DNA of 64,000 bases from Tubulanus polymorphus (Eukaryota; Animalia; Nemertea). Both the position numbers and the translations under genes were made by a program. The notes beneath the pieces are model-generated. The model was not told the origin of the DNA. It made no database searches and saw only the letters and a program-made list of their open reading frames with translations. This document shows, one piece after another, positions 22,005-60,400 of the stretch; the first letter of the stretch is position 1, and each line of letters begins with the position of its first letter. The stretch lies in assembly GCF_964204645.1 (NCBI RefSeq), contig NC_134031.1, positions 16,727,807 through 16,791,806 on the forward strand, in the 5' to 3' direction.

Positions 22005-25000
22005 ATGGCCGATGATATGAAATCCGAGTTATTGTGTCCGATCTGTTTGGATTTATACAAAGTACCCATAATTTTGCCGTGTTCGCATATACTGTGTCAC
22101 GAGTGCACGAGTCAGTTGTTTAATCAGAACTTCGTGAAATGTCCGGTTTGTCGCGATCGCTCGTACGTGACCGGCGGCGTCGATACGCTACCGCGCGTTA
22201 TAACCCTCGAAAATATCATACACCGAATTCACCACGGATCGCTGAGCGAAGACGCGTCTACGCGAAGACGAGACGACAGCGGCGGCTCGACCGACGACGA
22301 TCGTGACGAAGCTAGCGACGCTACGATCTCGTGTCAGATGTGCGACGGTAAAACGCCGCGTCGCGCTAAACGGTCGTGTCAGGATTGTAACGCGTCGTAC
22401 TGCTCGGATTGTTTGCAGATATCGCATCCGGCGCGGCCGCCGTTTACCGATCATCGGCTGATCGAACCGTCGTTGCACCCGCGACCGAACGACGCCGTCT
22501 GCACCGAACATAAAGAAAAAGGGAAAGTTTATTGTTCTGATTGTAAGCAGTTAGCGTGTATCGTCTGCGTGGAGTTACGCGTGCACGAAAATCACCAGTT
22601 ATTGTCGCTAGAACAGGCGTTCTTGATGACTAAGGTAAGAAATCTATTTCCTTCAATTTTTCTTATTTCGCTTGGCTTAGAAATTTTCTGCAGCAATTTC
22701 AAGTTCATTCAAGCTAAGTATGAATGAGCGTTAGTTAGTTACCTAATTGTCGTTGGTAGTAAGCTTTTATAATCGAATGGGCTTCGTGAAAATATGCAAT
22801 CGTGAAATTAAACCACAGACCAAGGGACTGACAATAACGAGCAAAAACCACGGTTCATTATTTAACGGTTAATTCTGACAGCTTCGACAGCTTTTGACTA
22901 CTAAACTTTTTTATCAGAGTAATGAAAAAATTGAGTTTCTCTCATTATGAAATTTAGTCAAAACTTTGAAACGTATACCAGTAGAGCAAACTGTTATTTC
23001 ATCAACTGTGGGGTTTGCTCATCAATTCTGTACTGATATTAATAACAGTCTACCTGTCATTAAAGCTATGTATGTTTTGATCTTTTATAATCTTTATCCG
23101 ATCTATGTTGTCATCACGTAAACATTGGCTGAGCATATTTTATATTTAAAGAAAATCACATTTGATTTCGCTTTATTTCAAGATCAGAGGCGATAAAAAG
23201 ACTTTCAAGTATTGGTTTTTACGGCTTGGAAGTGATCAGATCTCTATCATACATGCACTTTTATGAATGGGAAAAAAAGCTTGCCAAGGTGAATGTACTA
23301 TCTTTGTCTTTTCAGGAAGTTGTCACTGAAAATCTGAAGAAATTAGATTCTGTACATATTTCAATCACCGATGCAGTATCCAGACATCAGGAACAACTTA
23401 CAGAATTACAGGTAAGAAAAATATCAGATTTTCAGTTACCAGTAAAAAATTTTTACAGAATCTAAGAATATGAGCAGGAATCAAAGTTATTGGTTGAGAT
23501 ACTCGAGTACTCAGCAACTCTCCCAGGTAACCCGGAAATAATGCACTGCATCATTAACTTGGCTTTCATCCAGTATATAATACTTAATAAGCGCCTTGTT
23601 CTTCTGCCAATTACGTAAAACACTTCCAGCCGAGCTTCCCTGTTCGTATGATTATGTTATTGGCGTAATTTTCACCAACGGAAAGCTAATAAACAATTTC
23701 AAAAAATGCAGCAATTTTCCCTAAATTATATAGGCGCAGTAACTATTCTTAATCAATAGTTTCTCTTGAAAAATGCAGATTGCCTTCTATATGAATGTAT
23801 GATACTGTATGTACATAATGGTAGTCTTAAATCGGGGACAGTTGGATATTTGATTCTATGCTTAAGCAAATTCTTGAAAGATGCTTCTTTATCTATTATT
23901 CATTTTATCATATACGATTAACAGGTTTGATTTTATCATAACATTGATATTGTTATTGTAATGGATTATTGATTATGATTATCGTGATAACTACATTATA
24001 TCATATTATTTTCATCTTTCTTATTTGCTTATTGTTGATATCAGCACTGTCATTGTCATCTTTTTGTAAATCATCCTAAGGCAATGGGCCTCCACTCGAG
24101 TACAACCTCCTGGATTGTCCATTGTCCTTTCCCTTTTTACGCACACATTATCTAATAATACTTTATTTATAGAATTGTGTATAGGTTTGTTGTTATATAG
24201 CAGATGAATTAAGAAATATCATTATTATTACCAAATCGACAGCCACCCCACAGCCACCCCTCCTCCCTGACAGTACATTGTTTTCCCAATTTCTTATTCT
24301 TCTGGGCCTGGTTTTAGACTAGGATTATCTTTAACCGAGGGGTGAACTCAATTGATAATGAATTAGTTAAAGTTGATACTGGGGCCCTGGTCTATTGATT
24401 TAATCTGTTTGATTCACGCAGAAATACGTAAAGTATTGATGATGATTTTGATATTTTCTATTTTCGATAGAAAATGTTCCTGTATCGTAAACCAGATATT
24501 GACTTCTTACCTAAAAAAAAAATCTTACCTATAAAAAAAGTACTGCAAAGGTTGACAGCCTAGTAAACGTTTTTTGTTAGATGCGTCTGTTTTTTCGTGT
24601 ACAGGTGTCGGTTGAGACTCGTCGACAGAAGATCAATCGAGAATGCGATTCATTGATCAGAGAAATCGAGAATAAACGCAGTTATTTCATCGCCGATCTC
24701 GAATATGAAAATCGCAGTAAAACCAACGCCATACAAGACATACAGAACGAATATAAAATCCACTGCACCAAGGTGACTAAACTTGTCCATGTGCGCTAGT
24801 TCCTCTCCGTCCCTGTCCTTAGAAATGATATATCATAAATGTAGATTTGCAATTTGTGGCCGGGTTAAGACAAAAACCGAAATAAGACAAAGCGAACTTG
24901 GATTTATGATTGCCTTCTATTTCTGGTAGTTGTTACCAGTATTTATAAGAGAACGATAATTCTGTGCTGCTTACAAATTCGAAGTAATAAATGGATTCAC

Positions 25001-28000
25001 GCTAGAAATAGATGTTTGAAGTCGGTTTATACCGTATATAATTCAGTCATTCACTGGTAGAAGGCCGGGTGATGGTAGTTAAGTATCTGTGCTTCTAACT
25101 GGTGTTGGGTCTTGTGAATTGTATACCAGCATTTTTGCGAGTCCCAGTAAACCTGTACCAGATGTTGGATCTTCTTATTCCACCAATTGCAAATTTATGA
25201 TTCGTGGCATTGTATATGGCTGTAAAACTGAACTTTGTTGTCTCAACTTACCTTTACTTTTGCTTCTTTTGAGGTTTTCGGTTGTAGTTAAACTGCAGAG
25301 TTAAGACGGAGACCAAAACAAAGAGAACTTTGATTTTGAAAGATTGCCTTGCTGGTAGACCCATACCAGTTTATATTAAGAACAGTAGATAACAGTATTC
25401 CATGCTGTATAACAAATTCAAAGTACCGGTAATGGATAGTTTCACACTAGAAATAGATACTTAAAGTTTGTTAATTCCATCAGTCCCTGGTCTAGAAGGG
25501 TGATGCTGTGGTCGTGAAGTATCTGCGATTGTAACGGCGATTGTAATCGGTGTAGCGTCTCCTGTACCTGCGAGTTGGAGTATAGCGGTACCTGCGCGTA
25601 CCAGTATACCGGCGAGTGGGAATAGTAAATCGTGTGTTGAAACGACGCGTCGGACTTAGGTCACTAGTTGTTCCCGTGTAGCGACGCGTTGTGCTACCCG
25701 TCGTCCGTATTAAACGCTGCGACGATCGTCGTCTGGTATACGACTCACAGTCTGGAAAAATTAAACTGTAAATTAAATTATAACTGTAGAAATATGATTT
25801 TGAAATACTAAGGCCCTTCCCTTTTCTGCCTAGAATCGTCAATAAGTTAGGATATTTTCTACAAAGTATGTGTTGATTCAGCAAGTTCAGTTTTAGTTAA
25901 AAGGCTTACCATGTAAAACAACTGCGATGACTATCAAAACGTATAGCAATACTAACGCGATCTTCATTTTTCGACGTGAGCTCAGTTAGATCTCAGCGAA
26001 GATTATCAAATCCACCCCAATATATATCAATTGTTACGAGCCTCATTTGTTAACTCAGATTTATATGTTTTACACCTGATTAAATTCAGAACAAAGGTAT
26101 TGTTTGTTATATCTGTGGGAAGATTTGTTGACATGCGCGGAATGTGTTTTTTACCTTGTTGAGTTAATTAAATTATGTGTATGAACAGTTGGCTGAGGAA
26201 GAGGAATCGTGGCACCATTTTTGCCCTTCGTTTAATTCCTCTCCATTCGGATCATAAAAAAAATTCCACCATGTTTCTTTCCAGATTTCTTGATCCGAAT
26301 TAATGATTCATAGCATCGAATACCGTTAAAGCTGAACTTCGTATCAACTTACCCGTTATATTTGCTACTTTCGTTTAAATTTTTAGGTTTTCGGCATCGC
26401 TGTCCATAGAAATGAAACCTCATGTTTTCCATACGGACTAACTGTTGTAGTAACATTGCAGGGTTATGACGTAAATGACAATAGAATATTCGTTTAATTC
26501 CTCTCCATTCGGATCATAAAAAAAATTCCACCATGTTTCTTTCCAGATTTCTTGATCCGAATTAATGATTCATAGCATCGAATACCGTTAAAGCTGAACT
26601 TCGTATCAACTTACCCGTTATATTTGCTACTTTTGTTTAAATTTTTAGGTTTTCGGCATCGCTGTCCATAGAAATGAAACCTCATGTTTTCCATACGGAC
26701 TAACTGTTGTAGTAACATTGCAGGGTTATGACGTAAATGACAATAGAATAAGGAGAACTTGGATTTATGATTGCCTTCTATTTCTGGTAATACTGACCAG
26801 TTTCATAAGAGATCAATATTTTTATACTGCTTATACAAATTTCAGGTTATGGATGAATTTAAGCTAGATACATTTTTTGAAGTCAGTTTATATATTGTTC
26901 ATTCGGTCGACGTTCTAGAAGGGCGGTGTTGTGGTTGAGAAGTAATCTTTTTATCTGCGATTACGATCGGTGTATCGTGTCCGAGTATACCGGAACCTGC
27001 GAGTCGGAGTCTGAGTATACCGGAACCTGCGAGTCAACCTGCGGGTCGGAGTCAACCTGCGGGTTGGAGTCAACCTGCGGGTCGGAGTCAACCTGCGGGT
27101 CGGAGTACTCGGGTCAAATCGTATGGTGTAACGACGGTTCGTACTAATGCCACTGCGCGTCCCAGTACGTGTCCCGATTGAGGAACGTGTCCCTATCGAG
27201 GTACGTGTCCCTATCGAAGTACGTGTCCCGATTGAACGACGTCTGTCATACGACTCACAGTCTGCAACAAAGACACAAAAAGAAAATGCATCTTAACCCT
27301 TTTGTACACCGCAGCACGGTGTATAAATCGGTTATGGGCTTAGTTTAGTACACGGCATCATGGTGTATTGATGTTATTAGTTATAAGTTTTTATCTCTAT
27401 GGAAAAATGGCAGGACCTGACAAACATTACCTGAAATATTAGTAACTAACTATACGCTGATGCACTAAAAGGTAGAACACTGGGTTGGAATGTTTTTAAA
27501 TGTTTAAATTATCACCAGCAATTTTGGTTATTAATTAGCCAGTACTGAAAAAGCGTGAAAACTGATTTTTCCAAGCATTGAGCCTCACATATTTCTACTG
27601 TTTTCAGTTTATTCCGCCAGAAAATTATTATTTAAATTATTATTATAGGAAATTCCAGATTTCTGTTCTGTTTGAAACCTACGCAACAGGTTTATAATGA
27701 AAACCAACTTCCATAATCACAAATGAAATATCCAAGTACATACTCTCAGAATTCATGTATGTCTGGCAGAAGGTGTCAAAATGAATTTGTTCTTCTGCTA
27801 AAGTCGAGGACTTACCGTACAAAAGAGCGGCGATGATAATCAAAATACACAGTGTTGCAATCACGATCTTCATCTTTTGCGATCTGAAAACAGTAACTCG
27901 ATTTCCATAGATTTTCGCTCCTTAAATGAATAAAGTATCCAATTTTTCCTAGTACACTCTATTTTATGTACCTCACTTGTGCTCACTCAAAACATCAATG

Positions 28001-31000
28001 TGTTTTTATCCTGGTTTATTGCAGATGAATATTGTTCCTAAGTTGTTATTAGTAATTTTGTCAAGTACATATAATTAGCCTTTGATCGTTTATGCTTAGC
28101 ATTCATCATTATTTCCACGATCGAATAATTACAGCATCTATTTTTGTGTCATCTGTGATTGTTAACATAGTATTCAAACATCGCTTGACATAAAAAGTTC
28201 CTGTGTTGAGCTATTCGTCTGTGTTCACAAATTCACCCTAATTTTTTGATTCCAGAATTACTCATTTTCTCATTTCGTCCCCACTCCCTAATTTGTTTGT
28301 TTGGTTTGTTTTTCCGTAAATAATGTTACACATTTGTACAATGATATTCATCCACATATTGTATTCATGGTTTTAGTAGAATAACCACACTCGAACGTGG
28401 AGAATAGACGATATGGCAAAAACCGACCATGAACAGAACTAAAAGAAAACCAAGAATTTATTTAATCCAAGATTTCAAATGACACGACCTTTTGAACTCT
28501 CTCTAGAGATCATCGTCATATGTGAGGCTAAAGTCTGTCGCACCTGAGGATGATCTCTAGTGAGAATTTGAAATGTCGTGTCATTTTTAATTTTTGATTG
28601 AATGAATTCTTGGTTTTTAATTTAGTAAATTTATAAATTTTTGGTCAAACAGATTCGTAGAATTGATTACACTTGCATTTGAAACATTACAGGTTGAGAA
28701 TCTGATATCATATGCTTACGAATTACTAAAAGAAGAAGATAAAGGAAGATTCCTGCAGTTGTCGGCAACTGTTAACGACCAGTGAGTTATATGTATTTTT
28801 CTCTCAGTTCAAAGGTTCCAAACAATGAATGATATCTGACGCTGTAATACATACAAATTTTATATTTGTTATAGGCTGATGAAAGGAACGACAGTTGGAG
28901 AAGATTTTCCTGTTTTACCTGCCGATGTAGCTCAGTTGAAAACCAAATCTGTTGATTTCCGGAAAGAATGTGTTTTACTGAAAGATCTCAGCTATTTGAC
29001 AGGTTAACTATGATATTAAGAATTGTGTGGGGCTATGTCACCCAGTTTTAATAACTGTTTAGAATTTTGCGGGTACTTCTTCACCCAGACACCACAAGAA
29101 GTTTATTTGCAAGTACCGGGGGTACATTTTGAACTCAACTGTTGCGCATATGCGAAGGCATACAAATGTATGTACATGTATTGAGTAGTGGTCTGAAATC
29201 AGAAAAACATAGATATTTCTTATTTTAGCTCCTTCAACGCCGGTCATTGATGTGTTAAAATGTTCGCGGTCATTTGATACGGTGGTCTTGGTTATACACA
29301 ACAATGATGAAAAAGTAGCGGAAGTCGTCAATTTTTACAATGTTCATTATTGCACTGAACATGAAAAGAGTATGGGCGACCATGTGAGTGATTGTCTTAT
29401 TATAGGTCATCAATGGTTTAAGTAGTTAGTTACCTAATCGTTGGTGGTAAGCTTTTTATAATCAGATGGGCTTATACCATATATGTGGTTTGTGAAAATA
29501 TCCGATCGTGAAACTAAACCACTGTCTGGTTACTGACTATGGTTTAAGCAAAAAGTTTTCAAAATATCAATCTTGATAATCCATGGTTCAAACCCTGGTA
29601 TGGCAGACGCTTTTGCAAATTTCTAGCTGTGAATATCATTGAGAGAATCCCACAATATAAATCTAAAACAACTGTCCACCCATCTTCAGAGTTTTTTTGA
29701 AAATAAACCCTGATGATGGGTGGAATGATTCAACCCCGAAACATAAGGAAAAACAATAGCAGTTTTTCAGATTTATGTTTTGGGTTTCTCTCAATAATCA
29801 ATTGTTCTTTTAGGGCTTTTCACGTTCATGTAATCGTCATACATTCGTGAATGACCATTCGTTCTGTTTTTTTCTCCAGACATTAGCCATTTTCAAGATG
29901 CCTCAGGAAGAGAGAAAATCATTCAGATCAATGGAAAAAGGAAACGCTATGGTTCTCGTTATTACGAACTTGGTCAACAACACTCTTTATTATTTCTGCG
30001 TGAAAGCTGTAAATTCTGCTGGTGAAAGTGATACCTCGAATATCGTTAATTGTACAACTCTGGAAACGAATGACTCTTCAGTGCCTGGTAAAAAATACTG
30101 TTTATGATCTTCAACCTTATAGCTTAGTTCTATTTCCAAAATCTCAATGTATTTACTTAGGCAGCCAACAAAGTTAACCCCAATCAGTCGCTTACTGGTT
30201 CAGGCTGGTCGGAATATTGAATGAACTGGAACTGAAATTTCCAATTATGTACTTCGATTTAAACAAAACATTCTGTAAATTAGACCGCTGATCACACAAC
30301 TATATCCGTACTTCAACTTCTGATTTCAAAATCAAACCCCCTGTTTCACTCCCGGCAGGTGCACCCTAAATCAGACCAAATCTACCAATGAAATAAATGA
30401 AGGGTCAATCCCTATTTCAAGATCAGAAAAGAGATACCAAATCTACCAATGAAATAAATAACTGGTCAATCCCTATTTCTAGATCAAAAATGAAATACTG
30501 TTTTAAAATGTTCTAGGCTTATTCTCACAAACTGTTGAAACTATGATTTATTTTCCAGTTCCTGAAATTGAGAAAAGATTTTGTCGTACGTACACGTCAT
30601 CTATACAGATATATTGTAACACACCTTCTTCGTCAAATCCTCCGAGCGGCGTAAACTTCTATCTGTTATACTGCGAAGCCAACGTACATTCACCGCGAGT
30701 GTGGAAGAGTAAACCGATGTCGCAATACGGAATTTATGAACATCGAGTGTTCGGTCTCGAGCCAAATACCAGGTAATTATGATTGTAGATCATTTTCATA
30801 TCAGCTGACCTAACGGCGACTACCAATTGAGAGTAGTTTCTAGTCATTAAGGGCTTAATTACTCCCTAAGAATAAAGAATACTCTCAAAAAACCAGATAA
30901 TTTCTAGTTCGTTTTCAATGAAACTACTTTTTGGCGTCAAATTACTCTTATTTTTGGTGACAATTACTACAATCGATGGTATAAGGTACCCCTGGTAGTG

Positions 31001-31201
31001 CGATCAGTGTCTGGAACCCTGGACTAGACAACTAGATTAGTATCTGTTACTGCAAAACTGGTGATGGCATTAGTCTATGCCCTTTCTCAACCATTGAACA
31101 TATTCATTTTCAGGTATGAGCTTATGATACTAGCTACTGGATCTAACGGTGCTTGTCAAATATCTGGTTCCATATTCTTAAAAACCAAGGATTCTGCTTA
31201 G
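22005..31201 (+). CDS. Tripartite motif E3 ligase, RING-Bbox1-Bbox2-coiled coil-COS-FN3-FN3, about 591 aa, no SPRY domain
   Basis: Exons 22005-22634, 23316-23411, 24605-24772, 28693-28781, 28875-29002, 29229-29383, 29880-30087, 30559-30772 and 31114-31201 join in frame (1776 nt). RING CPICLDLY..LPCSHILCHEC..CPVCR; B-box1 CQMC..CQDCNASYCSDC..H; B-box2 CTEH..YCSDC..C..C..H..H. FN3 motifs LVNNTLYYFCVKAVNSAGES and GLEPNTRYELMILA. Confidence 0.85.
24890..25220 (-). pseudogene. Degenerate third copy of the nested Arg/Thr-rich peptide gene (exon 2 and 3'UTR remnant)
   Basis: 24890-25070 aligns by eye with the 3' flanks of the two intact copies (26753-26920 and 25321-25500), e.g. gaacttggatttatgattgccttctatttctggta. 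Minus-strand translation gives ..WYRFTGTRKN..TS*KHRYLTTITRPS, versus RYFTTTASPF* in the intact copy. It has an in-frame stop and no signal-peptide exon. Confidence 0.6.
25492..25967 (-). CDS. Nested secreted Arg/Thr/Tyr-rich cationic peptide A (105 aa, 2 exons)
   Basis: Exon 1 25967-25910 (MKIALVLLYVLIVIAVVLH, donor G|GTAAG) and exon 2 25751-25492 (acceptor TTTTTCCAG|) give MKIALVLLYVLIVIAVVLHDCES-YTRRRSSQRLIRTTGSTTRRYTGTTSDLSPTRRFNTRFTIPTRRYTGTRRYRYTPTRRYRRRYTDYNRRYNRRYFTTTASPF*. Typical signal peptide; same exon length and phase as paralog B. Confidence 0.8.
26227..26750. repeat. Near-perfect 262-bp tandem duplication
   Basis: 26227-26488 is repeated at 26489-26750 with one visible substitution (ctttcgttt versus cttttgttt). 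Confidence 0.9.
26951..27873 (-). CDS. Nested secreted Arg/Thr-rich cationic repeat peptide B (122 aa, 2 exons; conserved in-frame tail continues to 26915)
   Basis: Exon 1 27873-27816 (MKIVIATLCILIIIAALLY, donor G|GTAAG) and exon 2 27261-26951 (TTGCAG|) give ..DCES-YDRRR, four SIGTR units, TGTRSGISTNRRYTIRFDPS, (TPTRRL)x4, TRRFRYTQTPTRRFRYTRTRYTDRNRR*. The start of exon 2 (ACTGTGAGTCGTAT) is identical to paralog A. Confidence 0.78.
27293..27553. mobile_element. Diverged copy of the piggyBac-like MITE inside the intron of nested peptide gene B
   Basis: Starts TTAACCCTTT and shares internal blocks with 6564-6851 (tagtacac.gca, tggtgtattgat, atggcag.acctg.caaacat, tgaaatatt.gtaactaac, tattaattagccag.actgaaa). 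Confidence 0.7.
29421..29540. mobile_element. ~120-bp MITE family; further copies at ~22730-22830, ~44685-44780 and ~48220-48355
   Basis: Recurrent core agttacctaatcgt.ggtggtaagctttt..gatgggctt..gtgaaaatatccgatcgtgaaactaaaccac with inverted ends gtagttagttacc and ggttactgactac. Confidence 0.7.
30377..30495. repeat. 60-bp imperfect tandem duplication in a TRIM intron
   Basis: ccaaatctaccaatgaaataaat....ggtcaatccctatttc.agatca.aaa occurs twice. Confidence 0.75.
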
Positions 31202-32562
31202 AAGACAAATTAAGAAAACAGCACACATTTATTGTTTTTAGTCAGATTGTCAGAAATATACTTTTAAATGGTGAATTGAACTAAACTGTTGATACCTGTG
31301 TGTATTCCATATCAATCTGTATGATACAGTATATGTACCGTAGTATTATCCTCAAAAATTGAATACTTTTGTTCATTGACTGTTTTTCAAAATGTCTTCA
31401 TTGCGGATTCAGAATATGAATCCTGTGAAGAAATAAGATAGCTGTACATTTTGTTTGAATTTATTACATTCAAGGATTGACTTGATAAACCTGGTTTGTT
31501 TAGTATGGTAGACCCGCGCGTGACAACCTGTACTATAATATACCATTCATATATCATCCAATATTGTGTAATTACTTTTCTATTTGAATATTTGATAATA
31601 AAATTTGTTTTTCAATTTACTACAATAGTTATTTTTCTGTGCCAAATCTCGATTTCCCCGGTTATACTTTAGGTAGAGAGTCAAATGAACAATATTCTAA
31701 ACAAAGACGAAATTCATCCTTGTGTGATGATCGTAATATATATTATTTTCAAGGAAGAATTTCGTTTTAGTTGTGATTCTGTTGCAGATATTCCCGATTA
31801 TCTCCTTAACATGTACATCTGATCTCTCATCATGTCTCCAACAATCAAAAAGCAGACGAACTCGAAAACAAAGAAATATTGAAACTTTCTAAATTTTAAA
31901 TCAATTTATTGACAAACATAATATCAGATCAATAACTTATGGCAAATCATATTTAATAAAACAAGTTAAGTTTTCACAATATTTCTTCCTATCTCCTTTC
32001 ATTAAAGGAAGCTTTACTGGTTCATCTCAACAGATTCATAAATCTTCGGTAATTGATAGCAGTAGTATTTCAATAATATTCTAAAACCAAAATAATTAAT
32101 ACGCTTTTTAAGGAATGTCACTTATTTGTGAGTCTCGATGATCCTTAGTCCTAAACATACATATACTAACAGTTTTATCAGACAATTCACATTCGCAATA
32201 AAAAAATCTACTTAAAAAGGGTTTTACGTACATCTGTATTCAATCTGTTTTTACTATGTTTGACAAAAGTAACATTTTGCAATACGAATCATCTAGCAAA
32301 AACAGCAGTCAGAAGAGAAGAAAATCTCACAAAATGACACATAGAGCTGAGTAGAACATAATCACCATGGCAAGATGATAAAACCTTTTAATTATGAACT
32401 ATAATTTTCGGATTGTCCGCAGAATTTTTCGCGAAAACTGTCGAAATTGTTTCGCGCAACTCTGAACCGCAGACGATGAAATACAACCGGTTTTTACCGC
32501 GATGTCGTTTATAAATTCGTAATCGGACGTTATTTCAGAATTTAAAATAACGTCTGCAATGA

Positions 32563-45429: not shown

Positions 45430-47376
45430 CTATTTCTTCTTCGGCAGCAATTTCTCTAGATTCTTATCGAAATCCGACTCGTTAATGTTCATCATAAGAG
45501 TACCGGCGTTAAGATACACCCTGTTCTGCGAGTTTGCGATCTACAAATAAATGCGTAACATTCACTATTCACTTGATTCACGAGATTAGGCAGAAATTTC
45601 AACCGAACCGATGTGATAAACTTACAGTTCTGGCAATGTTCTGCGCAGCTCGAATTTTACGTAGTTTAAGGTAACCAGGATTAGCAGTAATAGCTTCACC
45701 GATCAGTTTAGCAGCTTGAGCTTCACCCTCGGCTTGCACTACTTTTTGTTGTTTCTCCTGTTTGGCAATCTCGACGACCAATTGAGCTCTTTGAGCTTCT
45801 TGTTGAGCGACCTAATAATCACGAACACACGAATATAGTTATGTTGCTTCGAACAAAGCAAGCCTACAAGTACTGACCAAGTACCACATGTGATATATGT
45901 CTCAATCTTTAAACCGAATTCCACCGATCAACAAAACTGGGTCCAGATGACATTTAATTACATAAATTCTTAAATGGTTTCTCATGGGCGGTTGGAAAAT
46001 AAATGAATGATCCCTTACATATCTTTCAAAATTCCCAATTTTTGTATTTTCGTGGAGAAAGGCTTTCAATTCAAACATTCAAAATCAGACCTAAAGTCAC
46101 TGGTTAATTTCACGAGATCTGGACTGTAACTGACCTGCTTTGATTCGACGGCTGCCGTATACTCTTTTCCGAAACTCAATTCAGTGATGGAAACGTCGTC
46201 GACGATTAGACGGAAATCTTTCGCGCGTTCGGTCAGTTCACTACGAATGAGTAACGAAACCTGCTGTCGTTGTGTGATCAATTGTGAAGCGTTGAATTTA
46301 GCTACGACCGCTTTCAAAACCTTGAAATATGAAAAAAATCGAATTTGGTTTTTTCCATCATTCGTTTTCTACGCAACATGAGACATCGACCAGGATTCAT
46401 AAATTCATGACATTACCTCATTCACAATTGAAGGTAACACTCGGTCATCATAGTCCGTTCCCAGTTGACGATACATATTCGGTAATTGCATTGCATCTGG
46501 TCTGGCTAACACACGTAGTGAAATATTAACCATTTGTAAATCTGAAAAATGTATACATTGAATCATTGCATCAACACAATTAACTGACTAATTTGTAAAA
46601 ATAACGCATATAAAAGTATCAATCGTTTGCCTATTACCTTTGCTACCAGTTGGTGAGGTAATTTTTCTTGGCCTCGATCGAATGTCATAGATTATTGGAT
46701 AATGAAACCACGGAACTCTGTAAATGAAACATATTTCAATTTGCAATCAACTCGTACAGGGGCTGCGCAGTGACCTCCAGATTGGGAGGGGGTTAATTTG
46801 CAATGTACTTCTAGCTAGGATCAAAAGAACTGAAAGTGCTCATTTGCAATCAACTCGTACAGGGGCTGCGCAGTGACCTCCAGATTGGGAGGGGGTTAAT
46901 TGGCAATGTAGTTCTAGCTAGGATCAAAAGAACTGAAAGTGCTCAATAAGGGATCCAGGGTCCATGCTTAAAAACTGAAACTTTTTGGGGAGAGCCCTGG
47001 TTGACACATACTGTCACTAGGAAAAGGAGACTGGCTGCTGGGGCGAATGTTTTCAACTACTAACCGGAAATGAAGTCCTTCTGTATAAACATCATTTTTC
47101 ACGCCACCGATTCTGCTGAAAATAATAGCACGGTGACCACCATCGACTGTAAAGAATAATCAACAATTGTGTAACTGTTGTTGCATCAGTAGGTTTTACA
47201 AGTTACATGACATTACAGCGCCATCTGGTGATAGAAATCTTACCGGTGTAAAACGAGTGTGCGGCTCCATATGCGAGTCCAGCTGCGGCTGCCAGCAGCC
47301 CTACACCTTTACCCAAACCTTTGCCACCCTTGCTTAACCTTCCAGCGAGGTCGTTCATCATGTTCTTACCCTCCAT
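45430..47376 (-). CDS. PHB2: Prohibitin-2, 7 exons
   Basis: [41 protein letters not shown]|[27 protein letters not shown]|[37 protein letters not shown]|[28 protein letters not shown]|[13 protein letters not shown]. Confidence 0.95.
46739..46944. repeat. 103-bp tandem duplication in PHB2 intron 2
   Basis: atttgcaatcaactcgtacaggggctgcgcagtgacc..gaaagtgctc occurs twice, with about 2 mismatches. Confidence 0.85.
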
Positions 47377-47553
47377 TACCAGTTTCTATTCGACTGCGCA
47401 GAGTTAAAAGTGAACCCGGAAGTAAGCCGGTACCTATACCACGTGGTTTCAGATCGAAAAAAGGTCGCTAGCTTTCACGGTTCGGATGCCGGACCGGGCT
47501 CGCGCAGCGGTCGCTCGCTTGATTGTCAAATTTCACTTCCTGGTTTGAAAAAG
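47377..47553. promoter_or_regulatory. Bidirectional promoter PHB2/TRAPPC13
   Basis: Divergent start codons are 177 bp apart; the region is CpG-rich, with ETS/GABP-type sites CCGGAAGT (~47416-47423) and CACTTCC (~47534). Confidence 0.7.
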
Positions 47554-49408
47554 ATGGAAGGCAGCAGGGAAAGGGAGCAGCTTCTGGCTTTGAAAGTGAT
47601 GCGTCTGACGAAACCGTCGTTGATGTTGGGTCACAATGTTATCTGTGATAGTTATGATCTACCCAAGGATGCGTTCAATACGGTTCAGTTGCCTGATTTA
47701 GCCACTGTTCAGGGCGAACAGAAATTGGGCCTCAGCGAACTGTTGACTTTACCCCAGAATTTTGGCAATATATTCTTAGGCGAAACGTTCGCCAGCTACA
47801 TCAGCGTTCACAACGACAGCAATCAAGTGTGCAGAGATGTCCACGTTAAAGCAGACCTACAAACTAGTCTGCAGAGGCTCCCCCTATCAGGTGCGATCTT
47901 CGTCATGTCCGTCATTTGGCTTTCTGAAGAACTAGCTTTTTTAATGCCTTATATCACAGGCACTCGCCGATGGGCTTGGGATACAGTTGCTGGGGTTTTC
48001 GATAGTGTATTTGTGTTTTCACTCGTTATTCTGCAATAAATCCGAGAAAAAACGTCTCGATACTAGGTCACACGGGCACCTGCTACAAGTATTCCCAAGT
48101 ATTCTTAACTACCTTTTCTTTTATCTCCCAGCTACATTTATGCCTGTCCCGACATGGGCCCTAGTAGCTTGTTTACTATTGATTGCCTTATCTTCGCTCA
48201 TGACCTACTCTTAAAACCCTAGTTAAGTTACCTAATCGTCGGTGGTAAGCTTTTATAATTAGATGGGCTTATAGGCCTACCAAGAAAATATAAGAAATGC
48301 GGTTTGTGAAAATATCCGATCGTGAAACTAAACCACAGACAGGTAACTGACTACTATAACCCTAGACCCTAAATTCTGCAAACTTTCCCTTTTGAATAGA
48401 TATGGAAGAAGATGTAGGAAATGGCAGGGATTTTTTTCTACAAAACATGTCAAAATAGCCATTTGAATAATAATAGATTCGCTCTTCATTTCAGGGGCTA
48501 CGACTGATGTCGTTCAGGAATTGAACCCAGATTGCAGCATAGACGACGTCATTCAACACGAGGTTAAAGAACTCGGCACTCATATTCTGGTATGCGCCGT
48601 CAGTTATTTAACCATGTCCGGCGAGAAAATGTATTTTCGCAAATTTTTCAAGTTCCAAGTTTTGAAGCCGCTGGACTTGAAACCGAAATTCTATAACGCC
48701 GAATCCGATGAAGTTTACCTCGAGGCTCAGATCCAGAATTTGACGCCGATGCCGATATTTCTGGAGAAAGTCTCGATGGAACCGTCGCTGGAGTACACGG
48801 CGACCGAACTGAACACTCATACCATAAACGAGGATAAAGATCGATACGTATTCGGGAAAATAAACATGTTGAACCCGATGGACACGCGACAGTATTTGTA
48901 TTGTCTAGTTCCGAAGCCGGAATTGTACGGAGAGTCGAAAGTCATAAAGGGCGTAACGAACATCGGAAAACTGGACATCGTTTGGAAAACGAGCATGGCC
49001 GAAAAAGGCCGCCTTCAAACTAGTCCGTTACAACGCGTAGCCCCCGGTTACGGAGACGTGCGACTGGCGATCGAGTATATGCCGGACGCGATCGCGCTCG
49101 AGAAACCGTTCAACGTTACGTATAAAGTTACGAACTGCAGCGAACGTACGATGGACTTGACACTGGCGCTCGAGAACAGCCCGTCGTCGGGGTTAATGTG
49201 GTGCGGTATATCCGGTCGTCAGCTCGGGAAAATCAGCGCGAACGAGAGCCGCAAAATTAATCTCAGTCTCATCGGAATCGTTCCCGGTTTGCAAACTGTG
49301 TCCGGATTGAAATTGATCGATACATTCCTGAAGCGTACGTACGAACACGACGACATGGCGCAGATTTTCATCTTTTCGGCGAATAACAAAAACGGTTCAG
49401 TAAATTAA
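47554..49408 (+). CDS. TRAPPC13: Trafficking protein particle complex subunit 13, 2 coding exons, 416 aa
   Basis: Exons 47554-47890 and 48495-49408 join in frame. [108 protein letters not shown]. Confidence 0.93.
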
Positions 49409-53537: not shown

Positions 53538-54493
53538 GCAGCTAATAACAATCGACGCTGGTGCTTTTTGAATCGAATTTATTTAATTGTACAGTTTTGT
53601 AATCATGCGAATCGGTGTAATGTCTAAATTATGTAAATAAAGTGAAAAAAGATATTTAGAAAATGAACTTGAATTGTATTTTTATGGAGCGGAGTACCGG
53701 TATTCAATTTTTCGGAATGTGTAATCGACGTATTTTCTGAACTCTGGCTGTTCTTTTGTGGGGAAAAAATAACTTCGCCAGGTCGCTTCATTATTCGGGA
53801 TTCGAACCCGCTGAGTAAGCCGAACGCTTAAGGTTCAAGATGGGGGGTATTCGATTGTGTTATCGTTTAAATCTAGCCTGTGGACAATCCTTCTAAATTT
53901 ATAGATCAATTAATCGCAATAATTACGAATATAATTACAAAATCATAATAAGTCCTATTGAATATATCTAATTTAAAAGCTAGCATTGAGTCCAGCTGAG
54001 ACGTGGAATAAAGCAGTGAATTCGACGCGACGTTTCGTTTCGTCAGTTAATCAATAACTATCACACGTAAGCGATGCGGAAGAGAAATATGTCAACATTT
54101 CCAGATGCATCTGTTGTGTATTTCACGCTTGATTTAATTGGATTCTAAATCGGAATATCTACCCGGGACGATAATCTAAACATTGAGATTATGTACGCGT
54201 TGTTTTAATCGCGGTTTTATAACTTCGAAGGCCATTCTAATCGAACATTTCCAGTTTCTTAGACTTCTTAAAAATTCGTTTGCTCATCGTGACATTGACA
54301 AAATAGCGTAGGCCTACTCCCCCTTTGCCTAACATAAATGAAAAGGATTGTGGTTGAGATAGGGTTATATCTAACAACTATCAAATGGCTTGAGAAGCGC
54401 AATTAAATCTGTTAATGTTCAAATTTCACTGTTTCCCTCTAGCTAGGCCTGTATCTGTATGTCAATCCATATTTTGTTTATTTGCAGTTCAGC

Positions 54494-57400
54494 ATGAGCC
54501 AAAACGCGCCATGGCAGGTCCAAGAAAATCAGCATCAGAAGGGCCAAGTTCAGATGTTCGACCCGACGCAGTTCAGTCAACCAGCTGCGGCACCTGGTGG
54601 ACCAGCTACATCGCCTGGCCAGCAGCAACAACAACAACAGAATTCATCTAATAACGTGAACGGCGATGGATGGGATAACAGTTGGAATTGGGGGGATGAA
54701 AACCAACCAAACGCCGGTCAACAGAATAATCACCAACAGCAACAACAATGGCAATACGACCAGCAACAAAACTGGAATAATTATTACAGTACTCAACAGC
54801 AGTATGGATACAGCGCTGATAGTACTGTCGGGCAGAATTATAACGATACATCCAACCAAAATTACGGAGATACCGGATCTTTTAATCAGAGTTGGAATAA
54901 TCCGGAGCAAGCCGCGAACGATTGGAGCAATATTAATCAACAGCAGTGGTACGCTCAACAGCCGGTAGGCGGCGCCGATAGTTTCAATTACGCGAATACC
55001 GCCGTCGATCAGGCGGGAGCGGTAACCTACGGCGACGATCGTAATACGAATAACGTCGATCCGTCTGCCGCGGCGTCGACGACGATGAACTATCAACAAT
55101 ACGACGGATTTCAAGGCGTCGTCGATTATACGTCGTCGGCTCAACCGAATCACATCGATGCTCGGTACGACCATGACGACGGAGGAACCGCGTCGGCGTT
55201 CTTCGGTAAAAATGATGATTACGATGACTCCGGTATCGTTAACGCTGCTCCGCCGCCACAGCCATCATCGACTGCTGACCAAATGCAAGATATAAATTTA
55301 GGCGACGATTCGACGGGTAACAACGAATCGGGGAATTCGGACGCGTTCGGAGAACACAGTCGACAGAGTTCGTACGGCGGAGGCGCGTCATTCGTAATCG
55401 GATCCGGGCCGAACAGTCGTCGAACGTCTGCTTTACCCGACGACGTGCAAACTTTTACCCCGTCTAATCCGGCGGTTGAATCGGCTCAAATACCGGCGCA
55501 GACGACGAGCTTATTGTCGGAAAACGTCGCGGTGAACGAATCGTTTCAAACGCGGTCTTACGGCGATTCTTATCATCAAGATTCGTTTCAAGGTCAACGT
55601 TATCAATCGCAGACGTCGGTCGATTCGTTTAATTCGGAACGCGCCGCCGTGCTCGATTCGTTCGCCCCGAATCAGAACCATTCTCGTCCGGCGAGCGCGG
55701 TCGAACAAAACGCTCGTCCGATCGGTCTGTTCGATCCGGCATCTCAGTCGCTACCCGCGTCTCCGCATCCGGCTAGTCGCGCCACTCCGACGAGTCCAGC
55801 TGCCGGATATTTTCAACAACCGGCGCAGATTCCGGCGTCGGAGCCGAGTCGATCGAGACCGCCGTCGTCTCATTCGACGAAAAGTCACGACAGTTTCGTC
55901 GCGTCGTCGGTTCATTCCGATTCGATGCCGACGACGAATCGGTCGCCGGCTTCGACTCCGTATTCGGGAAGTATCCGCGGTCCGAGTCCGCTGGCGCGTG
56001 ACATGTCGCCCGTGCAGAAATCCAACGACAACGCTGCTCATCATCAACATCACAATCATCCGCCGCGTAATCTACCGGCGATGCAAGCTTTACAAGAACA
56101 CGGCTCGGAAACTATTCTGAACGACGCTGCGTCTATTGGGGTGCAGTCGCAGCCCATTAACATTCCTGGTCAGCCGCCGACTGATTTACCTATATCGCCT
56201 AACGAGCACGCCATGAGTATCTATCACAGTCCGATACAACCTCATCCGAACAGTCTGTTCAGACCGGTCGGTAAGGTGGTTACGCCGACCGAACCGGATC
56301 AGAATCGAAAGCTCGGAGGCTCGACGGAGAATGTCGCAAATGTCGAGACCGATCAGCCGGGAATGACGACGACTCAACCACCTCCAGTGAGGCTACCGCA
56401 GATGGACCAACATCAACAGGCAGGACCAGCCAGTAGTCATACACCTCAGCCGCAAACAATGTTTGATCCTCATCAAGCCTCACTCTCTACTACCACTCCT
56501 CAGCAAGTACCAATAGCGGTTTCTCTACAGATGCAGTCATTAACTTCTGCTAGCCAGCCTCATCTGGTACAACCAGCTGGACCACCCGAACAACTGCCAC
56601 CAGCCAATCAGCCTCAGCAAGTTCAGCCGGTTACTTCTGTGCCTCAGAATATGGTGAGCAGCGCTCAACACGTAGCTCCCTCACCACCAGCCCAGCCTGT
56701 CAACCTTCAACAGACTCCGGTGGAAAGTATCAACGAGGGGCCACTAATTCACAGCTCCGATCATCCTCAGAATGTATCCGCGCCGCAGCAGTCGGTACCT
56801 GCACCGGTTATCACCGCAGCACCTGCTGCCCAATCGGCGAGCGATGTCGATTCTCAAGCTCCGATGTCGCCGTCGAGATCGGTTCTAATGAGACAGCGTT
56901 ACCGCGAAGGTAACAGTCTATCTCCGGCGGCTACGCTGTGGGATAACCCGGTCAGCGCTAACGTCGTACTAGCAGCTCCCATAAAACAGCCAGCTTCTAC
57001 TAGTTCTACTGCCGGTCTGTTCGAAAATCCTAGTCAGAATGGAACGACGTCTTCGGCCTCGACCGCTGGCTACTTTCCACCTCCTGGTCAGAGCGCCGAC
57101 AGCGGCACGGCTGCTCCAAACCCTCGACAACAACAGCCAGTAGTTACACAAGCTCAGCAACCAACTTTTACGCAACCGAAACCATTGAAGGATGCTAATT
57201 TGGCACCGATCATTGATCAGGGTAATACACAAGATCCTATAAATAAGCATAATGAACCGAGTCCTTCAGTTCAAAACGAACCTGTAGGAGACAGACCAGT
57301 TTATAAAGGCGAGTTTCGGTCAATGAAGTCTCCTAATACAGACCAACTGGCATCTAATACTGGTGGTCAAGTCAACCAAGGTTTGAATAATACATCCATC

Positions 57401-60400
57401 GCTGAGACTTCGCGTATACCTAATGATAATATCGGTAATCTTCAACAAGTTCGCGGCCCCGATGAAAGCAGTTCCGCACCTTTATATCAAGAAAGTCGTC
57501 AGGAACAAGCGGTTGTTACCAATCAGCCTGGTACACCACAGCCACAGCAGCAGCGACCCGATAATTTGACGATGTCGCGTAGTTTCGATACGCCGGGCGG
57601 TAGTTCTCAGACTAGTAGCACGCCGGCTAGACGCCGCAGTGATGATCAATCACGAGACCCAAAAGACCGTGATGATGACAGACGTTACGGCAGACGTGAT
57701 GACGACAGGTCGGACAGCAGACGTGATGACGACAGACGCGATAACGACAGACGTGATGACCGACGAGACAGCAGACGCGATGACGACAGGTCGGACAGCA
57801 GACGCGTTGACGACAGACGCGATGATCGCGGTTATAGAGGGCGTGATCGTAGATACAACGACCGATCGCGATACGACGATGACGACCGTCGTGACGATTA
57901 TTACGATCGCGATTACCGATATCGACCGACGACACCGTCTAGGGATTACGAGGACGGCGGTCGTGATCGTCCGCGTACGCCGAGTCGGGAAGATCCATCG
58001 AGGCGACCGACTACTCCGTCGCGGGAATATGACTACGATCGGCGATACGGAGACTCGAGAGACAGGTAAAAACCATCTTACATTCACATGTAGATATAAC
58101 AATACTATACAACGAAATACCACATTATAAAAGAAAAACTGAAATTTTTCCTTGAGCTATTATTTATATGATGTTTCAACCATCCTCCCTCGGCAGAGAT
58201 TTGAACCTAATGGCATTGAGACTTGTCACATTACAAAACCCAGCCACACTACCCCGAGTGTGGTAGGGTTTTGTCCCGTGGCTGAGTCTCAGGCGATGCC
58301 ATCAGGTTCGAACCCCTGCCGAGGGAGAATGTGTTTCAAATGCCATCCTTATAGTCATCTTCAGAAATACTGTATTCAATTCCTTAGGATAAAGTCAAAA
58401 CGTCGAAAGTATCACCTCAAGGAAACTTTTCGTACTTGTTTTTCTTAAATATTGCGGGATTATATCGTGAAGATCAACGTCTGCTTAACACTTTCTCATG
58501 CTTAAAACTCGTTAAGAAAAAAGTTATGCGAATTCAATTCAATATTGAAGGTACAAAATTATTTGATTTTAGACCTTATAAAATCTAATGTTGATTATTG
58601 AGCTCAATTAGATCGGGGGTATCCGTGTAGTTTTGGATCAATATTAGAAGTGTTTCGTTGTATTGTGTGTCAGTGACAGCTGTTTTAACTCACAGATGGC
58701 AGCAGTAATCAGTCTCTACTGACGTGTAGACACTCTAGTTCTCTGTACTATATCTTATATATACGTCCATTTTTTGGTGAAATCTATTAGCGGCAGTTAG
58801 TCTCATTGTTAGAAGACACGCGTAGATTTCTACTTTTAGATATAGATGAAATTTGATAAGTATAGTCAGTTATTATGAAGTGCGCACCGAGGATTAATAT
58901 TAGAAAGGATGTAATTTAGATTTATGGAGGTATATTTGAATATCACTTATGAGATTTCATAAATTTAGCTCTTCACCCTTCTTTCTATACCTCCCCCGCT
59001 AAATCTCCGTTAGTGAGATCGCGTACATTCAGCCCCCCCCTCAAAGTTCTTGAGTTCATTAGAATATTCCGACAATTCGTTAATCAGAACGTCTGTTGTT
59101 TTACAGGTGGTATGATAGAGATTATTATGATCGATACGGTGAACGACCCTCCAGTCGTCAATCACAGGACTACCGCGACTCACGTGATCAGTATGAACGA
59201 CCCAGGTCTAGACAGGGACAGGGTATGTAATGCTAGTGGATTTTCTTGTCCTGACGGAATCGTGTCAATTACGCTGTTGCATGTGCGGTTCACTTTTATG
59301 GATGTCCGGTTTACATTTGGGAAAATTGAAAAATCACCCTTGAAATATACTAGGGAAAAACTTGGGAATTTTTAATTCATGTTACTGTGGGCGTAGTGTT
59401 ATCGTTTTACTCCGTGATTCTAGGTGAAGTAGAAACGCAGCAGAGATCCCCGTCTAGAGGTAGTCAGAGTGAAATGGAGCGCCCTCGATCCAGAGGAGCT
59501 CATGATGATTATTACAGGGATTATTATCGACAAGCGGGTAAGAGCTCTTTAATGGCGGGTTCATCATTCAATGTATTACTACCTGGTGGTCATCCTATAA
59601 ATACTAGAGAAATGCCACAATAGTTCAGCCAAAGGCGTAAAGTTTTTGAATAAAGGTTTATATATCTGAGCAATGTTTTGGCTAAGGACGATTAGCAATA
59701 ATCAGACTCATATTCATTTTACACATATATTGTGAACCAGATCTTCTCGTTTTATCCTATAAATGATTTTAAGCAGATAAATCCTTGAAATTCTGGGTAT
59801 CCACCTCGACCGTGTTAATTGAGCGTGTAAATGGGATTTGTTTCATAATTCAATATCTTCGATTGCAGAATATGATCGTTACTATGGCTATGGCAGACGC
59901 GACTCTCATTACTACGACGACCGATATTACGAGGATTACTATAACTACCAGAGACAGGATCGGTATAATCGCGGTTACTATGAAGAAATGCAATATTATG
60001 GCCAGCAATACGCCGACGATCGGTAGGAAAAAATAGTCATTCGCAAGTTACTACGTAGTTTCTCTCCTTAAAAAAGTGGTCCACATCAGAATCCCTTTCC
60101 TTTACGCATCTTGTTAAAAAACCTTTAGAGGTTGTTTTTGTGTTTAGTTGCTTCGTTCAATTGTCGAAATTGAAATGCTTCACTTGTATCGTTTATTCGC
60201 ACATTAGCTCAAGTTTTATTCAAAGATAGATTACCTACCTACCGGTACTTATTGCTTTTCTTAGTCTTTCGGGAATGTTGTGATTTCATCTTTCAAATCG
60301 ATGATATATGTAGGAGTAGTAACATCTTTGACAAAATCTTGCTTTATCTAAAGCGCATTTGTTCAAAAGCAAACTGATTACTCGGTTTAGAAGCCATTAG

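Follow-up and report, generated by a model that had tools for sequence, protein, structure and literature searches.

A spliced, expressed gene for a predicted secreted arginine-rich polycation, interleaved with a TRIM gene in Tubulanus polymorphus

The 64,000-nucleotide stretch of DNA analyzed here, from the palaeonemertean ribbon worm Tubulanus polymorphus (the window; contig NC_134031.1 of assembly GCF_964204645.1, positions 16,727,807 to 16,791,806 of the forward strand) carries a TRIM gene on its forward strand and, antisense to it, two paralogous genes for small arginine-rich peptides, designated A and B. Gene B is real and expressed, with an unusual interleaved read-through transcript. 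Evidence at the RNA and DNA levels was taken from the assembled contigs of four public runs (X1 to X4) from a single study. X4, the library type of which is not on record, was taken as RNA because its contigs are spliced at introns of TRIM and of a neighboring NEURL4-like gene, while contigs from X1 to X3 run through introns and were read as DNA. The X2 and X3 contigs come from the same sample as X4. RNA support thus consists of contigs from one sample of one study, and assembly can drop short, rare, or minor isoforms. The features of the A/B locus are as follows.

24773..28692, plus strand: TRIM intron, which contains every coding exon of the A/B family; GT..AG joint in X4
25346..25751 (coding 25751-25492), minus strand: gene A exon 2, joined behind the 3' untranslated region (UTR) of B in X4
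25910..25967, minus strand: gene A signal-peptide exon, 58 nt, with intact ATG, hydrophobic core, and GTAAG donor
26615..27261, minus strand: gene B exon 2, with the DCES end of the predicted signal, the Arg/Thr/Tyr mature region, and 3' UTR up to a GTAAGT donor
27816..27883, minus strand: gene B signal exon; its acceptor is at 27884 and its ATG at 27873, and it carries 19 codons of predicted signal peptide
28693-28781, 28875-29002, 29229-29383, and 29880-30087, plus strand: TRIM exons inside the first intron of B
30559-30772, plus strand: TRIM exon overlapping the 5' exon of B
30625..30654, minus strand: non-coding 5' exon of gene B; its 3' boundary is exact, and it sits antisense inside TRIM exon 30559-30772

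An earlier, sequence-only reading of the window had described two 58-nt signal-peptide exons, each followed by a phase-1 GT-AG intron and a second exon opening with DCESY, and all of these were found where it had placed them. The ATG exons span 25967-25910 in A and 27873-27816 in B, the introns measure 158 and 554 nt, respectively, and joining the exons in silico gives open frames of 105 (A) and 122 (B) amino acids. When both strands of the 64 kb were scanned for an ATG followed by a basic residue, a hydrophobic core, and a phase-1 GT, exactly two exons were returned, those of A and B, compared with none in each of 20 block shuffles; the two signal exons are therefore not attributable to chance. 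Their hydrophobic cores have mean Kyte-Doolittle values of 3.35 to 3.49. The first exons of A and B share 39 of 58 nt, and of their 19 codons five are identical, four differ silently, and 10 carry replacements, eight of which exchange one hydrophobic residue for another, in agreement with the earlier proposal that this exon is under constraint. The residues DCES fit the end of a signal peptide, with Cys at -3 and Ser at -1, and cleavage is predicted at about residue 23.

Three joints, all minus-strand GT-AG, were identified in X4 contigs (27261/27816, 25751/26615, and 27883/30625), and none was among the joints listed for X1 to X3 where these runs had been aligned. The first bridges the intron of B at the junction that had been predicted for it. 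The last, which reads CT..AC on the forward strand and has the donor AAG/GTGTGT, connects the signal exon of B, whose acceptor sits 10 nt before the ATG, to a non-coding 5' exon. This exon was placed by exact mapping of the loose end of an X4 contig to 30625-30654; as these 5' letters map there, a spliced-leader origin for them was rejected. The B contig shows 30 nt of the exon. The TRIM contig is interrupted at that very base, with 461 of 461 nt explained, which means that the exon extends further upstream. The transcript of B starts at or above 30654, its 5' exon lying approximately 2.7 kb upstream of the signal exon. Contig depths were 459 and 258 for the peptide contigs and 38 for TRIM, values that were not used to rank expression.

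Both peptide genes had been described as intact and nested within TRIM intron 24773-28692. Spliced X4 contigs bridge that intron and the coding exons do lie inside it; however, the 5' exon of B falls antisense within a TRIM coding exon, so that the two genes interleave and B is not merely nested. The first intron of B spans four whole TRIM exons, and the RNA seen joins B to exon 2 of A. The first two of these TRIM exons are bridged by contigs, and the others were derived from splice sites, a single open frame, and contig-length arithmetic. Using Pfam, RING and B-box domains were identified in the TRIM host gene upstream of the intron, with a weak fn3 domain downstream.

At about 31100-32000, TRIM (plus strand) and the neuralized-repeat, NEURL4-like gene (minus strand) converge tail to tail. 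The NEURL4-like contig, on the same strand as B, ends at 31993, and the 5' exon of B follows about 1.3 kb beyond it; read-through from the NEURL4-like gene is a possible source of the B transcript.

At the other end of the B message, an X4 contig joins the 3' UTR of B (donor at 26614, GTAAGT) to the exon 2 acceptor of A at 25751, the shorter flank of the 26615/25751 joint measuring at least 255 nt, and the signal exon of A is skipped. The junction predicted for A itself (25910/25751) was not among the joints listed for X4; in its place, 26615 is joined to 25751 across exon 1 of A. Contigs of X4 give no cover on the bin holding A exon 1 or beyond 25346, a lack that was not counted as evidence. 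Along the B-to-A path no in-frame ATG leads into exon 2 of A, which is therefore only 3' UTR in the RNA seen, and a fused B-A protein was rejected, as stops and no in-frame ATG precede that exon. The join would represent read-through past the 3' end of B. It places the stop of B 336 nt before the last junction; in the available text of one source, a stop far before the last junction is expected to expose a message to nonsense-mediated decay (PMC13501980). By way of a guess, the read-through might be explained by an AATATA hexamer at 25377 that has no counterpart at the homologous place in B, an idea weakened by the presence of other candidate hexamers in B. Among human read-through transcripts, the commonest patterns described in the accessible part of one study are those in which same-strand neighbors are spliced together and the downstream gene's opening exon is omitted (PMC4136775). 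The B-to-A RNA is similar in skipping the first exon of the downstream gene and entering its exon 2. It differs in that the two genes are paralogs and in that the last exon of B is kept whole, with the donor in its 3' UTR, so that the protein is unchanged and a coding exon of A becomes UTR.

The donor used after B (GTAAGTTGA) is also kept after A, at about 25240-25251 on the minus strand, where 11 of 14 aligned bases match; across the wider flank the figure is 133 of 206. In X4 contigs this donor was not seen in use.

The B allele in the window stops at 26953-26951, 12 residues before a tail homologous to that of A. Contigs of X2, X3, and X4 are without that stop, and the longer allele ends at 26917-26915, its frame (with X at the stop codon) reaching YFSTTTPPF, comparable to YFTTTASPF in A. 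As X1 carries the stop of the window, the difference is a polymorphism and not an assembly error. RNA editing was rejected as the cause of the longer allele, which is carried by the unspliced X2 and X3 contigs. Four of the five allele differences listed for exon 2 of A are synonymous, against 26 to 30% expected (P 0.019-0.031), and the fifth exchanges Gln for Arg. Exon 2 of B is built from the units SIGTRT, LTPTRR, and RRFRYT, and across the first two of these, four of five variable columns are silent, one of these sharing its codon with the single replacement. All six Arg codons are in use; thus, the Arg richness does not stem from one expanded nucleotide repeat. The allele and repeat-column data favor selection on both proteins, and selection on the A protein would call for a message for A beyond that shown by the X4 sample. 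Translation of A probably persists, by way of a message absent from the RNA seen.

Recomputed residue counts for the mature regions were identical to those first reported. Mature A comprises 82 residues, with 24 Arg, 20 Thr, 10 Tyr, and 2 Asp, and mature B comprises 99 residues, with 30 Arg, 5 Tyr, and 3 Asp; both are devoid of Lys and Cys. Their masses are 10.3 (A) and 11.9 (B) kDa, with a computed isoelectric point (pI) of 11.9 to 12.0 and net charges of about +22 and +27. Arg accounts for 29 to 30% of residues, Thr plus Ser for 32 to 33%, Tyr plus Phe for 8 to 17%, aliphatic residues for 5 to 10%, and Gly for 4 to 6%. The chains are arranged in tandem hexapeptide units, with 12 and 9 Arg-aromatic adjacencies, 2 and 5 [ST]PxR motifs, and 11 and 10 RR pairs; in both copies an RRR lies two residues past the predicted signal cleavage. 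Structure prediction returned no fold, with a mean predicted local distance difference test score of 45 and a predicted template modeling score of 0.10, which, from a two-sequence alignment, is weak evidence. The mature chains are described here as predicted disordered polycations.

Two further features are found within the TRIM intron.

24860..25160, minus strand: third-copy remnant, consisting of the final third of exon 2, which contains a stop, and of 3' flank; 183 of 258 aligned bases are the same as in B
26227..26750: tandem duplication of 262 bp, carrying the 3' donor of B twice; 261 of 262 bases identical

Of the decayed third copy that had been proposed, a remnant is indeed present, limited to the closing third of exon 2 together with 3' flank, and the signal-exon scan of the window found no signal exon for it. 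Only one copy of the 262-bp duplication is present in X2 and X3 contigs. An X1 contig has approximately 46 nt resembling the intron of B (27708-27753) inside the intron of A (25881-25885), which suggests either gene conversion or the retention of an ancestral segment by the other haplotype. High-copy repeats were identified at 27283-27439 and 28382-28695, and positions 28446-28617 form an imperfect inverted repeat resembling a miniature inverted-repeat transposable element, in which matches to microRNAs were sub-threshold only. Depth in X1 was about 23 to 50 across the peptide exons, compared with hundreds to thousands at nearby repeats, which argues only against close extra copies (88% or more). 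This depth, together with the finding that none of four Rfam matches reached the gathering score, also argued against a transposon or structured RNA.

To identify relatives of A and B, the exon 2 products without the signal exon were used as protein queries; low complexity weakens all of these searches. No Pfam family was found for either peptide, and word-based protein searches (E<=10, near lengths only) retained none of 62 candidates for A and none of 3718 for B. The ESM Atlas gave no usable match for A or B, and no match to A was present among PDB sequences. A HMMER profile search of 1.84 billion representatives gave two matches, both rejected as long tandem-repeat proteins without a signal or common motif. 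Four peptide motifs had no occurrence in the literature text searched; the supplement of the Cephalothrix mucus proteome, which lay outside that search, may hold relatives. TPTRR, DCESY, and SIGTR were absent from a nemertean neuropeptidomics supplement that names Tubulanus 317 times (PMC8557429), and the same three motifs were absent from the portion searched of a nemertean toxin supplement (PMC9415933). Neither peptide was found among predicted proteins, though the collection includes other T. polymorphus proteins: an open reading frame (ORF) of a TRAPPC13-like gene in the window is 98% identical to a Tubulanus polymorphus protein, the next match being from Lineus longissimus at 76% (1013 matches). 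The earlier proposal of a lineage-specific family expanding by local duplication is upheld, and an orphan, lineage-restricted status for A and B is supported by the lack of a match to any described family in these searches.

The TRAPPC13-like gene itself (47338-49408, plus strand) lies in two long ORFs (233 and 313 residues, stop to stop) and has few introns compared with its intron-rich neighbors, for which intron loss or a retrocopy are possible explanations. At 54443-58069 on the plus strand is a low-complexity exon of 1208 residues, Gln/Pro-rich and then with Arg/Asp repeats; it has no Pfam match and resembles a SEC16-type N-terminal region.

Tentatively, and with somewhat less than an even chance of being right, we read B as a spliced, expressed gene for a predicted secreted, disordered polycation that would be a component of the matrix of mucus or of a secreted tube. 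The signal would be cut after DCES and the chain secreted, with gland cells as the putative source. In seawater, coacervation would bring the Arg and aromatic residues together with one another and with the anionic polymers of mucus, and the Thr/Ser third of the chain would provide spacers that may be glycosylated or phosphorylated. A would be a tandem duplicate whose message could come from its own promoter or from the B signal exon spliced in frame to exon 2 of A, both being phase 1. In the available text of the sources, a tick cement protein undergoes salt-induced coacervation for which Arg and aromatic residues are the driving force (PMC11794139), and a Tubulanus congener secretes cellophane-like tubes (PMC11167275); the sticker-and-spacer layout shared with the tick protein and the tube-secreting congener together are the reason that a mucus or tube matrix role is favored. 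A and B resemble mussel foot protein-3 (Mfp-3) and the tick cement glycine-rich protein, as far as these are described there, in being small, predicted secreted, cationic, aromatic, and cation-pi capable, and differ in having Thr/Ser in place of Gly as the spacer and no Trp. Mfp-3, according to the part of the source available, is about 6 kDa, contains Trp, and has 10 to 20 mol% Dopa (PMC12721214), compared with 10.3 and 11.9 kDa and 10 of 82 and 5 of 99 Tyr residues in A and B, and there is no sequence match between them. Several points weigh against the assignment of B to a mucus or tube matrix. The RNA base is one sample, in contigs only, and the message of B is taken as continuous from 5' to 3' contigs that are unjoined across a repeat at 27049-27070. 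Tube building by T. polymorphus itself enters the argument as general background. Predicted secretion draws on the hydrophobic core together with a C-x-S pattern, Tyr occurs only 5 times in B, the Trp of Mfp-3 is missing from both peptides, and one of the two sense differences listed for B replaces a residue. Defense-peptide families, too, typically show copies in tandem, pseudogene fragments, and nonsense alleles.

The main alternative, somewhat unlikely on our assessment, is that A and B are linear cationic host-defense peptides of a myticalin-like kind, acting in mucus or body fluid, whole or cut at RR, by binding bacterial surfaces or nucleic acids. A pI of about 12 and 30% Arg would suit such a function, and the available text of one study reports predicted antimicrobial peptides in Cephalothrix mucus (PMC12846013). 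Myticalins, as described in the part of the source available, are rich in Arg, Pro, Tyr, and Thr, show a signal consensus of 23 residues that ends in E-C-E-G and a UTR-only first exon with the intron ending just before the ATG, and include pseudogenes and nonsense alleles (PMC5577615). A and B are alike in their Arg/Tyr/Thr content; their predicted signals, compared by eye, have 23 residues and end in D-C-E-S, the remainder being generic hydrophobic sequence. B has a 5' UTR-only first exon with its acceptor 10 nt before the ATG, both peptides are Arg-rich and Cys-free with a pI above 11 and over 10% Arg, and the locus holds a pseudogene copy and a nonsense allele. In contrast to the myticalins and modiocalins so described, the mature regions of A and B are two to four times longer (82 and 99 versus 23-42 residues) and contain tandem hexapeptides, no Lys-Arg site or anionic C-terminal propeptide is present, and the phase-1 intron lies at codon 20, inside the predicted signal, rather than in the C-terminal extension; A and B also come from another phylum and have no sequence match to these peptides. 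The lack of the propeptide, the different intron, and the much longer mature region led to the rejection of A and B as myticalins proper. Signal peptides ending in C-E-small are common in secreted peptides, which weakens the likeness further. An antimicrobial function is also at odds with the allele differences of A, which are mostly silent and not diversifying, and the few aliphatic residues make membrane lysis unlikely. It seems very unlikely that the peptides belong to a reproductive secretion, whether of the egg coat, of spawning mucus, or associated with sperm, in which polycation chemistry like that of protamines would operate extracellularly: the use of Arg without Lys and the [ST]PxR motifs (2 and 5) point in that direction, and the composition resembles that of sperm basic proteins, but sperm nuclear proteins are without signal peptides, unlike the conserved hydrophobic exon of A and B.

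The sequence-only reading had also left room for a multi-peptide precursor or a toxin, both of which proved a poor fit, as the peptides have no Cys and no amidation Gly. A neuropeptide, hormone, or pheromone precursor would be cut at RR, and the 11 and 10 RR pairs and the RRR just after the predicted signal cleavage in both copies would allow this; however, the predicted fragments are mostly 1 to 13 residues with no motif common to A and B, basic pairs are not preceded by Gly, KR does not occur, and TPTRR, DCESY, and SIGTR are absent from the nemertean neuropeptide supplement (PMC8557429), making such a precursor less probable than a reproductive secretion. A defensive or predatory peptide toxin is highly improbable. 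The mucus and proboscis secretions of nemerteans include peptide toxins that are lineage-restricted, according to the available text of two sources (PMC12846013, PMC6410017), and A and B share with nemertean toxins (knottins and cytolysins) a small size, predicted secretion, lineage restriction, and phylum, but they have no cysteine framework, no predicted fold, no Pfam match (A, B), no PDB match (A), and none of the three motifs in the portion searched of the toxin supplement (PMC9415933). Compatible with any function of B is the view that only B is functional and that A is a young pseudogene, its exon 2 now serving as the 3' UTR of B. The RNA contig skips A exon 1, and no AG is present in A where the acceptor of B lies, the two nearest AGs being weak GAG sites. 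We nevertheless consider this unlikely, since the frame, ATG, hydrophobic core, and donor of A are intact despite only 39 of 58 nt being shared with B, four of five listed allele differences are synonymous, an acceptor-like CAG is present some 110 nt upstream of the ATG of A, and contig assembly drops short or rare branches. More ambitious, and doubtful, is the proposal that A and B are the first candidate tubulanid tube or mucus cement proteins, with a new coacervating chemistry that is based on Arg, Thr, and Tyr, dispenses with Lys and Cys, and uses little Gly, and that they are encoded by a splice-chained array. If true, a GTAAGT donor would end each unit, a single antisense promoter in a TRIM exon could feed several peptide exons, and the signal exon of B would be alternatively joined in frame to the mature exon of A.

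A search of the literature turned up no work on the molecules that make up the ribbon-worm tube, for which A and B would provide two concrete, synthesizable candidates; alternatively, they may represent a new linear antimicrobial family, which would add to a phylum known mainly for cysteine-rich toxins. Short, spliced, low-complexity genes such as these may be missed by annotation. With a peptide gene running antisense through five TRIM exons and the coding exon of a paralog serving as its 3' UTR, the locus would allow read-through splicing and nonsense-mediated decay to be tested directly in a spiralian.

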